Assembly (NCBI GenBank): GCA_035439445.1
Contig: DAORKG010000020.1
Span: forward strand, 375-64,374
Reading direction: 5' to 3'
From: Bacteroidia bacterium
GTDB lineage: Bacteria; Bacteroidota; Bacteroidia; B-17B0; Aurantibacillaceae
DNA length: 64,000 nt
In this document: positions 11,842-17,060 of the stretch, in pieces
Layout: every line of letters starts with the position of its first letter
Position numbering within the stretch: position 1 is the first letter of the stretch
Program-made: the position numbers and the translations under genes
Notes under the pieces: model-generated
Databases searched by the model: none
The model's input: the letters and a program-made list of their open reading frames with translations, nothing else
Told to the model about the DNA's origin: nothing

Positions 11842-11945
11842 TATTGTCAAACGATTTCTATTCGCGATATGAATGAAATTTGACCATTTTGAAGACTGAC
11901 TGCGCAGCAGTTGACAAAGTGCCAAATCAATTAAAAATCACAATT

Positions 11946-12695
11946 ATGGCAAGACAAAAAGGAATCATAAAGTTAAAAGGTAAAATCGGAGATTTATCCT
12001 TTTACAAAACACAGGATGGCCATTTAGCTCGTGAAAAAGGTGGTGTGGATGCCAGTCGTATAGCTAACGACCCGGCATTTATCAGAACCCGAGAAAACGG
12101 CGCTGAATTCGGTTCGTCTGCTAGCTCAGGAAAGCTAGTTAGAAATACTTTAAGACCATTGCTTATGACAGCTTCTGATAATCGTGTGACATCACGATTA
12201 ACGAAGTTGATGACTGATATTAAAAACCTTGACGCAACCTCTGTAAGAGGCAAAAGAACAGTTGGCGTTGCCATTACTCTTGCTCCTGCAAAGGCGTTGT
12301 TAAAAGGCTTTAATTTCAACGACAAAGCAATTTTAGGAAGTATTTTATTTAAACCTTTTGCAGTGACTACTGCAACTGGAGTAATTACCATTAATGGACT
12401 TATCCCTGCAAATGATATTGCGTTTCCTGCTGGAGCAACGCATATCAATATCAAAGGCGCTTGGGCTAAAGTGGATTTTGCAAACAATGTTTCTGATATT
12501 AAGTATTCAAACGTAGTGAATCTACCACTTAATGCTGTATCATCAAACGTTGTTTTAACTCCAACAGCTGCGGCAACTGGTGCAGGAACAAATTTGTTCA
12601 TGTTGCAAATTGAATTCTTACAAATGGTAAATACCGTTCAATATTCTCTTAAAAATGGCGCTTACAACGCATTAAGCGTTGTTGAGGTAGCCTAA
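11946..12695 (+). CDS. hypothetical protein (249 aa), conserved-looking N-terminus MARQKGIIKLKGKIGDLSFYKTQDGHLAREKGG
   Basis: Long ORF, no signal peptide, Ala/Thr/Asn-rich beta-type C-terminal half. ATG at 11946 preferred over TTG at 11880. Function unknown. Confidence 0.7.
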   Translation: MARQKGIIKLKGKIGDLSFYKTQDGHLAREKGGVDASRIANDPAFIRTRENGAEFGSSASSGKLVRNTLRPLLMTASDNRVTSRLTKLMTDIKNLDATSVRGKRTVGVAITLAPAKALLKGFNFNDKAILGSILFKPFAVTTATGVITINGLIPANDIAFPAGATHINIKGAWAKVDFANNVSDIKYSNVVNLPLNAVSSNVVLTPTAAATGAGTNLFMLQIEFLQMVNTVQYSLKNGAYNALSVVEVA

Positions 12696-12701
12696 CTCAA
12701 A

Positions 12702-12731
12702 AGCCCTAGGCATAAATGCCTGGGGCTTTTA
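12702..12731 (+). terminator. intra-operon hairpin (attenuator/terminator)
   Basis: AGCCCTAGGCA-TAAA-TGCCTGGGGCT (11 bp, one G-U), followed by only TTTT. Confidence 0.5.
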
Positions 12732-12766
12732 AACCAATAAAATATTAATCATTAAAAACATTCAAA

Positions 12767-12994
12767 ATGAATCTTATAGACAGATTAAAAGCACCAACTC
12801 CAAAGTTCTTTAAAATATTAAGAAATGTTGGATTAGGATTAGCTGCCGCAGGCGGCGTAATTGTGGCATCGCCAATAGCTATCCCTACAATTATTGTAAC
12901 CATAGGTGGTTATTTAATTGTAGCAGGAAGCGTAGCGACTGCTATTAGCCAAGCAGTAACAACTACTGAAGGCGAAAATGTAAAAAGTAACTGA
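12767..12994 (+). CDS. small membrane protein (75 aa, two hydrophobic helices)
   Basis: VGLGLAAAGGVIVASPIAIPTIIVTIGGYLIVAGSVATAI is Gly/Ala-rich TM sequence. Confidence 0.6.
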   Translation: MNLIDRLKAPTPKFFKILRNVGLGLAAAGGVIVASPIAIPTIIVTIGGYLIVAGSVATAISQAVTTTEGENVKSN

Positions 12995-13021
12995 ATAGTA
13001 ATTATTAAAATCATTATAAAA

Positions 13022-13360
13022 ATGACTGAAGAAAAAAATCAAACCGAAAAAACTCAAACTATTGTTGAGTTACAAGTTTTGCCATGTGCTAACGAAGTAG
13101 CAAAGGCAAAACAAAATGTTGAGGTATTGAATCATGAAAACCAAGATGATCCTCCATGCGGTAAAATTATTTTAACTGTTACTTGTAACGGTTCAAAATT
13201 AACCAAAGCAGATGCAGGTTATAATGCTGAACAAACTTATGAGATTTGGGCAGGTGCAAAACTAACAAAAGCTGATGCTGGAAAAATGCCTGACATTGAT
13301 GTTAGTGTGCATGAAAAATGTGGTTCAAAATTAACTAAAGCTGATTCAGGCAAAGCTTAA
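13022..13360 (+). CDS. hypothetical protein with three G[SA]KLTKAD[AS]G repeats
   Basis: GSKLTKADAG / GAKLTKADAG / GSKLTKADSG. The repeats are visible at DNA level at 13189-13218, 13251-13280 and 13322-13351. Confidence 0.6.
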   Translation: MTEEKNQTEKTQTIVELQVLPCANEVAKAKQNVEVLNHENQDDPPCGKIILTVTCNGSKLTKADAGYNAEQTYEIWAGAKLTKADAGKMPDIDVSVHEKCGSKLTKADSGKA

Positions 13361-13371
13361 AAAAATAGATT

Positions 13372-13560
13372 ATGTCAACACACAATAACATAGAAAGCGG
13401 AACAATCTTGGGTACTGTTTCCGGAACGGTTTTAACCGTAGCTGTGAACGTGGGTTCATCAGATATTTTAAAAACAGTTATTCTTGCTTCACTTGGTGCG
13501 GTGGTTAGTTTTAGCGTATCTTTGTTGTTGAAGTATTTAGTCAAAAGACTAAAAGAATAG
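13372..13560 (+). CDS. small membrane protein (62 aa)
   Basis: GTILGTVSGTVLTVAVNVG...VILASLGAVVSFSVSLLLKYL with a basic C-terminus. Holin-like architecture. Confidence 0.55.
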   Translation: MSTHNNIESGTILGTVSGTVLTVAVNVGSSDILKTVILASLGAVVSFSVSLLLKYLVKRLKE

Positions 13561-13617: not shown

Positions 13618-13714
13618 TTGGTTTTCATACAAAGCTACCAGTTATGTGCCAAAACTAACCAGTTACAAAGTGAGAGTTGCCACTTATTTGATAATTGGTA
13701 GTTTTGTGCCCCTT

Positions 13715-14101
13715 ATGCCAAAAGTCAAAACCCGAACGGCTGAAATCTATCTTGATAAGGATTTGATTTTGCATATAGTCATGTTAAATGACGTTGTTGT
13801 AGATTATGAAGATGCACTTGATAATTTTTTAGTTGTAAAACGATTCGTTAAAGAACGACATTGCTGTAAATTAATTGACATACGATGTAAATGTCATTTT
13901 GAAGCCAAAGCAAAGCAGTTTTTAGACACTAAAGATGTGCAAGGAAAAACATTATGTCGTGCACTATTAATCAATAGTAGCGTAAAGAAAATAACCTTAA
14001 ATTATTTCTTGAAATTCAACTCACAAAAAGTACCAACCAAATTTTTCACTGAATATAATGAGGCCATCAGTTGGCTGAAAAGTTACAAGCAAACTATATA
14101 G
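13715..14101 (+). CDS. hypothetical protein, STAS/SpoIIAA-like (DUF7793-like) fold suspected
   Basis: MPKVKTRTAEIYLDKDLILHIVMLND...AKAKQFL...ALLINSSVKKITLNYFLKF resembles SpoIIAA-like small domains. TAGTTTTG -7 box sits just upstream of the ATG at 13715; the ORF track starts at GTG 13646. Confidence 0.4.
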   Translation: MPKVKTRTAEIYLDKDLILHIVMLNDVVVDYEDALDNFLVVKRFVKERHCCKLIDIRCKCHFEAKAKQFLDTKDVQGKTLCRALLINSSVKKITLNYFLKFNSQKVPTKFFTEYNEAISWLKSYKQTI

Positions 14102-14524
14102 TTACTTTTTTAAATATTTATAAAACAAAGCTTTGCGCAATTGCATTAAATTAGAAAGTTGCTGTTGCAGATTAGTTTGATGCAACTCAATTTGAGCTAA
14201 AGCTTTTTGAACATCATAAAATGAGCGATTGCCAGAATTAACTGAATTTAAAACCTCATCTAAAACATCAATAACATCCCCTAAGCGAACAAACTCAATC
14301 ACTGAGCCTTTGAGATAAGGACGCAATAAACGAAGCTCCCAAATGCCTTGCAGCATGAAATAATAAAAATCCCTTTCATTTTTATCATCTGCCAGGAAAA
14401 CAAAAGAATTGCAGACATAATGCCTAAATGGCTTGCCTGAGTTGAGCCCTTTATTTAAAATAAAGAAATGTGGTTGATTGTAGATTTTACCTGATTTGTG
14501 GGTTTTGATTTTTGATTTAAGCAT
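14102..14524 (-). CDS. solitary single-TRD HsdS-like protein (140 aa)
   Basis: NSGKP...NSFVFLADDKNERDFYYFMLQG...LRPYLKGSVIEFVRLGDVIDV, then coiled coil LAQIELHQTNLQQQLSNLMQLRKALFYKYL. Pattern resembles half of a type I R-M specificity subunit. No hsdM or hsdR nearby. Confidence 0.4.
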   Translation of the reverse strand: MLKSKIKTHKSGKIYNQPHFFILNKGLNSGKPFRHYVCNSFVFLADDKNERDFYYFMLQGIWELRLLRPYLKGSVIEFVRLGDVIDVLDEVLNSVNSGNRSFYDVQKALAQIELHQTNLQQQLSNLMQLRKALFYKYLKK

Positions 14525-14898
14525 AATTATGGATTTAAAAATTATGCTGCCCGCATAGCGCTATCGCGCAAGCCCCTTAATATTTTGAAAAGAAAAAACT
14601 AAAAAAACTGAACTAAAAAGCCCAGAAAAAAATGAAAAAAGAAAGCATTTTGAAAAAGGCTTGGAACGATAGGTTGCAAGGTTTTTGCATAAAAAATACT
14701 ACCTGAATGTAGCGAGTTAAAAACTGTACCGTTAAAAAAGCGAAATGAAGTGTGGAGATTTTTTATGCAAAATTCATCTTGACCTTGCATACCAAAAGTG
14801 AAGAGCCTTAAATTGCTGCACTTTTTTTATTTTGATTAACATTTGAAGTCTCTAATTCTCTATTAGCTCCTTTTAGTTTATCAATCATAAATAAAGTT

Positions 14899-15759
14899 CT
14901 AATTACTCCAATTCAAAATGTTATCTTGAATACTAATATGATGTGCTTCAATATTTCCAATTTGTCGAAAATCAAATTTCCCTATTTCATTTTTATAGAC
15001 CTGAAATTCGTCACATAATGCATTCGTCAGTTCGATATTATCTGGTGTAATAAATGTACTAGATATAGCCCAGTTTACTCCAATTTGTTTTGAGGGAACG
15101 CTTGGATAACATATAGCGTGGGCTTTACCTTTGGCATGCAACAGAGCTAAATTACAATATGCTGTTGTAATAATATAAGTCTTCAAATCTCTTTTAGCAG
15201 GTAGTCTAAATTTATTAGCCAAGTATCTGAAAAAAGTATGATTTGCCTCTTTTAAATCTTGCTCTTGATCTTTTACTAAGTCATCATATACAGCACCATA
15301 ATATTTATCATATTCTGAAATGCGACTATCCATATCAGGAAATGTGACTATTATTGAAGACATTTGGGACTTAATCATCCATCTACCGATTGTTACCCTG
15401 AACACATCACCTACATTTTTAGTTTCAATCCAATTTTCAATTAATTCGAAATAAGAGATAGGGCGATTTTCAGAGCAATAAAAAACATTTTGACCTGGTC
15501 TATTACAGCGCGCAAAATAATTTATTGCATCCTTTGGAGGTAAGGATATTTGACTAATTTTTTCGAAAAAATCAATATCTACATGGGTTCGAGTTCTGAA
15601 AACAGGCATGTTTACTTTCTCTTCAAAAAGTATAACTGGAAAATTTATTAATTTACTATAAGCTAAAATTGCTTTTTCGTAACAGTATTCATCATTGGGA
15701 TTAAGAGCTTCTAATGAATCAATAATTTCATTTACATTTTTAACTAGCATAAAAAGCAT
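14899..15759 (-). CDS. RES-domain protein (toxin-like, NAD+-targeting family)
   Basis: ARCNRPGQNVFYCSENRPISYFEL (Arg, Tyr, Glu) and AICYPSVPSKQIGVNWAI (Ser) match the R-E-S signature spacing. 286 aa. Confidence 0.55.
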   Translation of the reverse strand: MLFMLVKNVNEIIDSLEALNPNDEYCYEKAILAYSKLINFPVILFEEKVNMPVFRTRTHVDIDFFEKISQISLPPKDAINYFARCNRPGQNVFYCSENRPISYFELIENWIETKNVGDVFRVTIGRWMIKSQMSSIIVTFPDMDSRISEYDKYYGAVYDDLVKDQEQDLKEANHTFFRYLANKFRLPAKRDLKTYIITTAYCNLALLHAKGKAHAICYPSVPSKQIGVNWAISSTFITPDNIELTNALCDEFQVYKNEIGKFDFRQIGNIEAHHISIQDNILNWSN

Positions 15760-15770
15760 TTATTGTATAA

Positions 15771-15778
15771 CAAATATA
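15771..15778 (-). promoter_or_regulatory. -7 box TATATTTG for the RES gene
   Basis: Reverse complement of CAAATATA, 12 nt upstream of the ATG at 15759. A T5 run and small GC hairpin lie immediately upstream on the - strand. Confidence 0.4.
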
Positions 15779-15780
15779 GG

Positions 15781-16535
15781 TAAAAAGCGCCTGCGGCGTG
15801 CGGTGGGATGAGGTTGCAAATAGTGAATGAAGTGAAAGTGCATCCTGAAAGGTGCGCTGAACGAAATGAATGGTTTGCAATCCGTTGTGCGGCGAGCCAC
15901 CTGCGAGTGGAGCGAGGGTGTGCAGCACGGGAGCACGAAGAGGTACGATGAGGGCGGGTGCAAACTATGTTGCCAGTGTGGCGAAATAAATAAAGCATCT
16001 GCTTTGATTTATGCCACACGATAGACAACACGAAGCAAAACTAAATGCAAGCAAAGCAATTTATTGCTTACCGCTTAGCGGCTTGCATAAGTTTTGCTGA
16101 AGCCCGAGCGACCCAGCAGGCGAGCTGAAAAGTTGGCAGCCGGTGGACTGAAAGCTGCTGAAATGAATGAAGTGAAATGGCACCCAGTGAAAGTAGTGAA
16201 ACGGATGTAACGGGTGAATAATGAAACGAAATGAATAAAGTTGCTTGAAGGACAAAGAAGGCTGCCGTGACGAAAGTACGTGCAAATTGCAAAATGTGTG
16301 ACAAACCCAAAGCCCTAAAGGGCAAAATAGCTTATGCGAAATGCCTTGAAAAGATAAAGCAGAGCATGGGCTATTTTGGTTTGGCGCATCTTTTTGCTTT
16401 GCACCTGCTGAGGAACGCCACTTTACCTGTTCGAGAAATGCGTTAGCGATTGTAGCGAATATCCTTTTTATCCTATAGGGTAAAAAGATAGTAGCGGAAA
16501 GCGCGACCGAAGGGAACGCTCAATAAAATCTATTA
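15781..16535. other. G+C/purine-rich ORF-free block: candidate structured ncRNA or REP-like repeat cluster
   Basis: Hand count ~349/740 G+C for 15781-16520, versus 19/60 in the adjacent coding line. Only mutually overlapping 62-95 aa - strand ORFs. Many local helices and an internal duplication of 14-nt and 12-nt exact motifs. Confidence 0.5.
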
Positions 16536-17060
16536 TTATAAAATTATATTTGATTTTCTAAAATAATTGTAATCATGTAACTTCTCATCTGATGTATCTG
16601 CAAATCCTAAAAATTCTATTAATCTATTCTTTTCATTACCAAATAAAAACAGTTCCATATCTATCTTGTTTTCTACAGATGTAACCCAGCCGAAAAAGGA
16701 TGCGGAATTTAAAATATCTAGTAATTTCCTTCTAACAGGGGAATCATATTTTTTAATGTTTAAATAATCAACATCAGTTTCAGTAGGGTATTTTTTTAAA
16801 TAAATATCAGAAAGAGATGAGATTCTATATTCGTTAGACATATTTTCTCTTTCATATTTACTAACAGCGTATAATACCGAGAAGCTTTTAATTGTCTTCC
16901 AAATTTGAATTTTTTCGTTAGAAGCTCTCTCTGAAGATGAAGTTGCATCTGCATTAAAACCGAAAAACATATCAGGTTCATATCCTGTTGTTAATGCTCT
17001 TCTAAAGAAATAAGTATCGGCTTTAACAAAATACTCTTTTTTATTTTCAATAATTGACAT
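16536..17060 (-). CDS. hypothetical cytoplasmic protein (174 aa)
   Basis: No signal peptide. Lies 7 nt downstream of the last T9SS cargo gene on the same strand. No recognisable motif. Confidence 0.55.
   Translation of the reverse strand: MSIIENKKEYFVKADTYFFRRALTTGYEPDMFFGFNADATSSSERASNEKIQIWKTIKSFSVLYAVSKYERENMSNEYRISSLSDIYLKKYPTETDVDYLNIKKYDSPVRRKLLDILNSASFFGWVTSVENKIDMELFLFGNEKNRLIEFLGFADTSDEKLHDYNYFRKSNIIL

Follow-up and report, generated by a model that had tools for sequence, protein, structure and literature searches.

To our knowledge, RES-domain toxins that target nicotinamide adenine dinucleotide (NAD+) have been described only as the toxin members of RES-Xre toxin-antitoxin pairs. 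The physiological role of these toxins is still debated. Here we analyze a RES-family gene that lies without an antitoxin gene in a 64,000-nucleotide (nt) stretch of a Bacteroidia genome (GenBank assembly GCA_035439445.1, contig DAORKG010000020.1; hereafter the window). The best-described relatives are paired. MbcT of Mycobacterium tuberculosis (Rv1989c, of the MbcTA pair), 186 amino acids (aa) long, kills bacteria by itself and is inhibited by the C terminus of MbcA, which occupies the active-site cleft (PMC6436930); the window has no MbcA-like gene. NatT of Pseudomonas aeruginosa (PA1030, of the NatR-NatT pair; Protein Data Bank [PDB] entry 8qnl) is encoded downstream of the Xre-type NatR and is stabilized and controlled through an N-terminal “Flap,” whereas the window family has no NatR-like gene. 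The toxins of the Pseudomonas putida RES-Xre pair (6gw6), the Vibrio pair VPA0770-VPA0769 (8gug), and the ParT-ParS pair belong to the same fold family as the window protein; they are minimal (145–156 aa), always paired with an antitoxin, and NAD+-using, whereas the window protein is longer and unpaired.

We find that antitoxin-less RES proteins of fixed length form a large Bacteroidota family (2151 clusters) located in defense islands. We propose, with moderate confidence, that the window member is a stand-alone NAD+-targeting enzyme that would be self-controlled and act as a latent, abortive-infection-type defense effector, its flanks not being its partners. An earlier note on this DNA, made from the sequence alone, had offered an RNA antidote, a single-protein defense effector, and a nontoxic RES relative as explanations for the missing antitoxin; the second has drawn the most support, from a slot that also holds prokaryotic Argonaute (pAgo), PD-Lambda-3_B, and Mrr genes and from defense genes beside other family members.

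A divergent RES-fold protein

The gene, its putative promoter, and the cassette that holds them lie as follows.

14899 to 15750, minus strand: RES-family gene, 283 aa from the conserved start codon (second ATG, at 15750)
15771 to 15778, minus strand: TATATTTG, a Bacteroidota-type −7 promoter-like box, recognized by sequence and conserved along with the gene in the closest relative, locus L046
14833 to 15779, minus strand: single-gene cargo cassette (promoter, RES gene, and a 66-nt tail); conservation with loci that lack a RES gene ends at about 14832 and at 15780

The earlier note had described an open reading frame (ORF) at 14899 to 15759 whose 286-aa translation carries RCNRPGQNVFYCSENRPISYFEL and CYPSVPS. 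We confirmed this ORF, on the minus strand, with both stretches in its translation. Its length holds for the longest ORF, which opens at an upstream ATG at 15759, but the start conserved in the family alignment and in L046 is the second ATG, giving 283 aa. Window and L046 copies are 78% identical in nucleotides and 74% in amino acids, with a ratio of nonsynonymous to synonymous substitution (dN/dS) of 0.14; judged by its sequence, the gene is real, functional, and under purifying selection. The box TATATTTG lies 11 nt before the first ATG and 20 nt before the conserved one. The window contains 120 copies of TAnnTTTG where chance predicts 116, so the motif carries no significance by itself, and the −7 box claimed in the earlier note stands only as a plausible promoter, from its position and its conservation in L046.

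The window protein is a divergent RES-fold protein with the catalytic signature, as had been suggested. An AlphaFold2 model built on the family alignment was of high quality (predicted local distance difference test, 93.4; predicted template modeling score, 0.90), and its five best Foldseek matches in the PDB were all RES toxins (probability 0.97–1.00), so the structural check proposed in the earlier note came out in favor of the RES fold. NatT was first (chains 8qnl_C and 8qnq_C; E 5e-6, probability 1.0, template modeling [TM] score 0.32–0.40), followed by the P. putida RES toxin (6gw6_A, 9r35_D) and VPA0770 (8gug_A); the 6gw6 and 8gug matches had E values of 4e-3 to 8e-3, TM-scores up to 0.57 when target-normalized, and about 10–13% identity. 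Matches to BFVD models were to uncharacterized viral proteins and were uninformative.

In an alignment reaching down to about 20% identity, R54, R81, N83, Y91, E102, and W281 are invariant and S217 is at least 90% conserved. The spacing R54-27-R81-10-Y91-11-E102...S217 mirrors R27, R47, Y58, E69, and S126 of MbcT, a mapping made by motif and spacing rather than by residue-level structural alignment. The conserved set comprises the R-E-S polar triad, the region-1 arginine, and the tyrosine; R27, R47, and Y58 are essential in MbcT (PMC6436930). The catalytic arginine of NatT, R82, has a place in its chain like that of R81 in the window protein, in a purely positional comparison.

Homology search returned 66 close homologues of 278–290 aa, almost all from Bacteroidota, some already annotated as PF08808 or “RES domain-containing protein.” Scanned singly, 29 of 40 close and 36 of 46 diverse members matched the Pfam RES model at E ≤ 0.01 (best E 2.9e-10). 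In the window protein, the match falls below threshold, placing residues 83–232 of the 286-aa ORF on model positions 25–135; no NCBIfam model matched it. Against 1.8 billion cluster representatives (at 50% identity), the family profile gave 2151 matches at E ≤ 1e-3, 780 of them at E ≤ 1e-10. Full-length matches among the best 150 listed were 258–309 aa long, the exception being one 374-aa protein with an N-terminal extension.

In the model, a helix-loop-helix (residues 3–32; helices 3–14 and 23–32) precedes the core, and the RES core starts at strand 48–55, which holds the invariant R54. The N-terminal extension is therefore about 45 aa long and not the roughly 70 aa given in the earlier note, since the R54 strand is already core. 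Further additions are a helical insertion of about 40 aa and, at the C terminus, a beta extension of about 50 aa that ends with the invariant W281. NatT (250 aa) likewise exceeds minimal RES toxin size and has a helix-loop-helix before its core, and the modeled window helices may lie where the Flap does; the window protein differs in having the C-terminal extension and the helical insertion, and it comes from Bacteroidota rather than Proteobacteria.

An orphan gene throughout the family

RES-Xre modules have an adjacent, usually upstream, Xre/MbcA-ParS antitoxin gene, and the window gene has none. The cassette, about 950 bp set between two conserved framework elements, contains a single ORF, with 66 nt to spare downstream of the RES gene and 29 nt upstream. 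We compared neighborhoods at 45 genome loci, on three contigs of the closest relative, and on eight contigs of distant members. All-against-all BLAST clustering of the flanking genes gave no neighbor family common beyond closely related loci, and none of 40 flanking proteins scanned with Pfam contained an Xre_MbcA_ParS_C/DUF2384 domain. Downstream neighbors had no mutual similarity and no common membrane-helix pattern. Across more than 50 loci, no shared neighbor or MbcA/ParS-type domain was found, which makes the absence of an antitoxin a trait of the family as a whole and not a local loss. The earlier note's claim that the window gene lacks an Xre/ParS-type antitoxin thus extends to the family.

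A classical type II toxin could still have a protein antitoxin of unrecognized type, either a fast-evolving adjacent gene or one encoded elsewhere, and several tightly coupled but unrelated neighbors would fit such a partner: the GYF_2 genes described below, whose stop codons meet or overlap the RES start at six loci; a 208-aa membrane-protein gene 19 nt downstream of the RES gene in L046; ORFs of 139–149 aa upstream of the gene in distant members; and, at a single locus (L029), an upstream ORF with a generic Xre helix-turn-helix. However, these coupled neighbors, including the upstream ORFs of distant members when compared with one another, share no detectable similarity, and none matches the MbcA/ParS toxin-binding domain. 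In addition, the window cassette has no room for a second gene and holds no remnant of the L046 208-aa gene. We consider a hidden antitoxin quite unlikely.

Proteins with a GYF_2 domain (PF14237), 190–499 aa long, are encoded just before the RES-family gene at six of the 45 loci (L014, L015, L017, L022, L040, and L041), ending at or overlapping its start codon. They are the only recurrent tight neighbor and a possible accessory partner in a sub-clade. Two other candidates were discarded. A “162-aa gene” upstream of the RES gene in L046 is a spurious ORF on the antisense strand of the large RNA described below. In the window, a 174-aa ORF (16536–17060) was considered as a displaced antitoxin; it has no similarity to neighbors of other RES genes and no matches, it belongs to a second variable region on the far side of the RNA, and we rejected it as a partner.

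The cargo slot and its borders

Related loci without the RES gene reveal what surrounds it. At all framework loci, window and L046 included, the order is tRNA, small ORFs, (DUF7793), DUF6943, leader, slot, large RNA, and second variable region. Slot content varies from locus to locus.

Window: RES gene
L046: RES gene and the 208-aa gene
L049: DUF7793 paralogue
L060: 178-aa protein of unknown type
L061: long pAgo (PADLOC PprPIWI, E 1.7e-38)
L062: 213- and 39-aa proteins of unknown type
L064: PD-Lambda-3_B (PADLOC, E 2.7e-80)
L070: 140- and 97-aa ORFs
L071: Mrr-type nuclease (Mrr_cat) and a 97-aa ORF
L067 and L068: nothing; about 105 nt stand where the window has its cassette

The RES gene is a mobile single-gene cassette in a defense hotspot, and both of its flanks are framework elements of that hotspot, independent of the gene.

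The flank upstream of the gene contains a large RNA on the opposite strand.

15780 to 16427, plus strand: large structured noncoding RNA of about 650 nt, rich in G+C (GC) and purines, supported by covariation and homologues
15788 to 16122, 16135 to 16266, and 16267 to 16416, plus strand: domains of the large RNA

The earlier note had described the 770 nt upstream of the gene as GC-rich and noncoding and had read them as belonging to it. The composition and the absence of a gene stand: these 776 nt (15760–16535) have a GC content of 0.41–0.53 against about 0.30 in the flanks and hold no conserved reading frame, the 62–95-aa ORFs being broken differently in every homologous copy, and 6–11 of the 7–14 indels per pairwise comparison of copies are not multiples of three. 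The assignment to the RES gene does not, as the region belongs to an independent RNA on the other strand.

Homologues of the RNA were recovered through one metagenome scan and through look-ups of contigs that encode DUF6943 homologues. Those in 13 fetched loci represent about nine distinct sites besides the window. RNAalifold on an eight-sequence alignment gave 114 pairs in 14 helices, with standard pairs in 93.3% of cells. Compensatory double changes occur at 24 pairs, compared with 11.7 ± 2.2 in 500 column shuffles (none of the 500 reached 24) and with 4–8 in slid controls whose partners were shifted by one to three columns. Invariant G-U pairs (for example, columns 154–204, 8/8, and 616–737, 7/7) would turn into C-A mismatches if the opposite strand were read, which places the RNA on the window's plus strand; it thus runs counter to the RES gene and is directed away from the gene. 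Minimum free energy was −232 kcal/mol on the plus strand (z = −6.2) and −181 on the minus strand.

This RNA could be imagined as a type III-like antidote or as a dedicated cis-regulator of the RES gene. The RNA is genuine and highly structured, it borders the gene directly, and between window and L046 it is better conserved (83% in nucleotides, with a 100-nt invariant block) than the gene itself. However, type III toxin-antitoxin systems have a tandem-repeat RNA on the same strand that is co-inherited with the toxin, whereas this one points away on the opposite strand and contains only short two-copy repeats, none of them like the tandem repeats of ToxI. Moreover, it occurs without a RES gene in L049, L050, L051, L060, L061, L062, L064–66, L067–68, L070, and L071, which make up at least eight distinct loci, and an nhmmer profile did not find it at the other 44 RES genome loci or at 8 distant RES loci. 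We reject the RNA antidote of the earlier note because RNA and gene occur independently; as a dedicated partner it is refuted, and any remaining form of the idea is extremely unlikely. The large RNA is an independent border element of the hotspot. It always lies between the variable single-gene defense slot and the second variable region, so far in one Bacteroidia lineage.

Two other identities for the GC-rich element were set aside. A repeat or mobile element does not fit, the element being single-copy in the window and having no match in phage or plasmid collections or in viral contigs. Nor is it a known Rfam RNA: nothing in Rfam 15 matched at the gathering threshold or with the cutoff relaxed to E ≤ 1, and E ≤ 10 yielded just two hits of about 16–17 bits, both at chance level. 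Few structured RNAs of the 650-nt size class are known, and each is biologically unusual. The RNA resembles OLE, ROOL, GOLLD, and raiA in its 600–700-nt size, multidomain layout, strong covariation, and high GC content in an AT-rich genome, but unlike them it matches no Rfam 15 model and has so far turned up in one lineage only. Copies other than that of the window were located as follows.

L046, 5282 to 5993, minus strand: large RNA copy
L049, 10323 to 11014, plus strand: large RNA copy
L060, 3433 to 4098, minus strand: large RNA copy
L061, 1843 to 2490, minus strand: large RNA copy
L062, 3358 to 4024, minus strand: large RNA copy
L064, 3193 to 3887, minus strand: large RNA copy
L067, 3956 to 4586, minus strand: large RNA copy
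L071, 2647 to 3322, minus strand: large RNA copy

The remaining framework features in the window are these.

16421 to 16512, plus strand: Flavo-1 RNA motif (RF01705; Rfam score 58 bits, gathering score 42), adjoining the large RNA on its 3′ side
14635 to 14827, minus strand: core fold of the structured leader that precedes the DUF6943 gene and bounds the slot on its other side (conserved block about 14525 to 14832)
14102 to 14524, minus strand: DUF6943 gene (Pfam PF22105, E 2.3e-36), the framework gene downstream of the slot
13646 to 14101, plus strand: DUF7793 gene (Pfam PF25056, E 1.3e-19), also present in L046 and L049
11508 to 11581, plus strand: tRNA gene (Rfam 68.8 bits) at the far end of the small-gene block, with the same layout in L046

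The Flavo-1 motif is peculiar to the window, being absent at the corresponding place in L046, L049, L050, and L051. On the downstream side of the RES gene, no credible ORF occurs in the 374 nt at 14525–14898, in keeping with the earlier note; these nucleotides do not belong to the RES gene, however, being the conserved DUF6943 leader, which is also conserved in L046, L049, L051, L060–L062, L064, and L067–L072. A conserved RNA fold for this leader is suggestive only: 40 consensus pairs are paired in 95% of cells, and 7 are compensated against 4.6 ± 1.0 in shuffles (12 of 500). The leader begins with AAAATAAAAAAAG, of which the empty site L067 and L071 each have two copies about 50 nt apart, and it comprises a long, partly compensated hairpin, then a U-rich tract and a terminator-like hairpin (14625–14608). 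It could be a cis-regulatory RNA or a small RNA. DUF6943 homologues number 723 clusters at E ≤ 1e-10, and those of 75–94% identity are very abundant in metagenomes.

By the tRNA gene, the small-gene block (11880–13560 in the window) has ORFs of 271, 75, 112, and 62 aa; in L046, L049, L051, and L060–L071 it likewise consists of a 249–271-aa protein and three small proteins. The 75- and 62-aa proteins are membrane-like, and the 112-aa protein has repeated KLTKADAGK-like motifs. Pfam and NCBIfam gave no matches to these proteins, and PADLOC and NCBIfam gave none for the framework genes. On the far side of the RNA, related loci carry SoFic, type I restriction-modification (RM) with YgjP, a PNP/PDC-M60C effector with GAP1, and caspase-like genes. 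The window has there, on the minus strand, the 174-aa ORF, which matches no Pfam, PADLOC, or NCBIfam model; it is a candidate defense gene, as other genomes carry SoFic, type I RM, and the PNP effector at that place.

A latent effector or a harmless relative

We propose that the product of the window gene is a 283-aa cytoplasmic enzyme from the RES branch within the ADP-ribosyltransferase-like superfamily. By analogy with its relatives, it would most likely consume NAD+, either by phosphorolysis or hydrolysis, as MbcT and NatT do, or by ADP-ribosyl transfer, as ParT does. It would operate as a stand-alone unit, with one gene, its own putative promoter, and no antitoxin gene. Since there is no antitoxin gene, control of activity probably lies within the protein itself; the N-terminal helix-loop-helix, the helical insertion, and the C-terminal beta extension are candidates for this role. 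The cassette would have been acquired at a hotspot of gene exchange where related genomes harbor known anti-phage genes, a setting that makes defense the most likely role, presumably as a latent abortive-infection-type effector switched on by an infection cue. NatT offers a precedent for a latent RES protein, as NatT with its Flap is not toxic by itself (PMC11535050). The proposed logic may also be compared with DSR1/DSR2 SIR2 proteins and TIR-domain effectors, which combine a latent NAD+-consuming domain with sensing extensions in one polypeptide in a defense island; they differ in having a SIR2 or TIR rather than a RES/ADP-ribosyltransferase-like fold, and the window protein is much smaller.

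The surroundings of other family members are consistent with this role. PADLOC applied to 138 flanking proteins from 37 nonredundant loci identified, as a descriptive count, Avs2 (twice), HEC-05 (twice), LmuB (twice), PsyrT, HerA, PtuA, and DpdF, together with components of type I, II, and III RM systems. The flanks include Lamassu (LmuB) and Septu (PtuA) genes as well as GmrSD and Schlafen genes, and other copies adjoin AbiH, a STAND NTPase, HEPN, a trypsin-like protease, or integrases; descriptively, the family has a recurrent place beside known defense systems. At L033 (5986–7946), an AbiH gene is followed directly by a tandem pair of RES-family paralogues (287 and 297 aa).

Five Flavobacteriaceae genera share an identical RES locus, carried on a TraG-bearing element that resembles an integrative and conjugative element (ICE); this suggests recent horizontal spread of a defense-laden ICE. 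The shared locus of about 13 kb (L001–L004 and L043, 3415–10059) contains, in order, a TraG-like coupling protein, an N6/N4 methylase, a type III Res helicase-nuclease, the RES-family gene, GmrSD, and a Schlafen/AlbA_2-helix-turn-helix gene. This element, and the integrases near several RES copies, would fit if the gene were offensive or selfish cargo of mobile elements, serving competition between elements or acting as an anti-defense factor rather than in host immunity. However, no homologue was found in 50,697 phage or 72,556 plasmid records, and the protein has neither a secretion signal nor a delivery domain and keeps a fixed length of about 280 aa. We regard selfish cargo as very unlikely.

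Several observations weigh against our proposal. The window protein scores only 17.6 bits (E 0.004) with the Pfam RES model (PF08808/COG5654), below the gathering score of 23.2, so that the Pfam check suggested in the earlier note gave matches for most family members and a subthreshold one for the window protein itself. Foldseek TM-scores are modest (0.28–0.57, the highest being the target-normalized value for VPA0770). Neither the protein nor two family profiles matched a solved RES structure among PDB chain sequences; fold comparison alone, therefore, made the RES link to solved structures. PADLOC-DB v2 gave no match to the RES protein at E ≤ 1. Some family members lie beside housekeeping genes (polA, gcvP, lpd, and rpsF-rpsR-rplI). 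The 2024 study of NatT notes that a connection with immunity has yet to be made for any RES system (PMC11535050). Defense activity of the family is predicted from context, and that the extensions would autoinhibit the enzyme is something we purely infer.

The main competing explanation is that the protein is a nontoxic RES relative with a physiological role outside immunity, be it as a regulator or as an NAD-dependent enzyme such as a specific ADP-ribosyltransferase. The antitoxin would then be unnecessary because the protein is harmless, which agrees with its absence everywhere in the family; the housekeeping flanks of some loci also fit. NatT, moreover, lacks toxicity when alone and acts in persistence and not in immunity (PMC11535050). 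MbcT can do without S126 and needs E69 only in part (PMC6436930), so conservation of the motif is no proof of toxicity. Against a harmless relative stand the patchy distribution of the family, with a different neighborhood at nearly every locus; the identical ICE-like copies in five genera beside type III RM, GmrSD, and Schlafen genes; and the position of the window copy in a presence/absence slot common to pAgo, PD-Lambda-3, and Mrr. We therefore judge a nontoxic role somewhat unlikely and favor the latent defense effector.

A broader proposal, bolder and in our estimate unlikely, is that this is an undescribed hotspot in which single defense genes (RES, pAgo, PD-Lambda-3, Mrr, and others of unknown type) are swapped in and out between two conserved structured RNAs, the three-domain RNA of about 650 nt and the leader of about 200 nt, that would aid capture or provide common regulation. 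The RNA of about 650 nt, well supported and absent from Rfam, is arguably a more novel result than the RES family. The family in turn opens the questions of whether RES enzymes act in anti-phage defense and of how a potentially lethal NAD+ enzyme stays silent without an antitoxin. If the exchange-hotspot proposal is true, this family of about 280-aa RES proteins would be the first RES-domain immune effector, and one free of an antitoxin.

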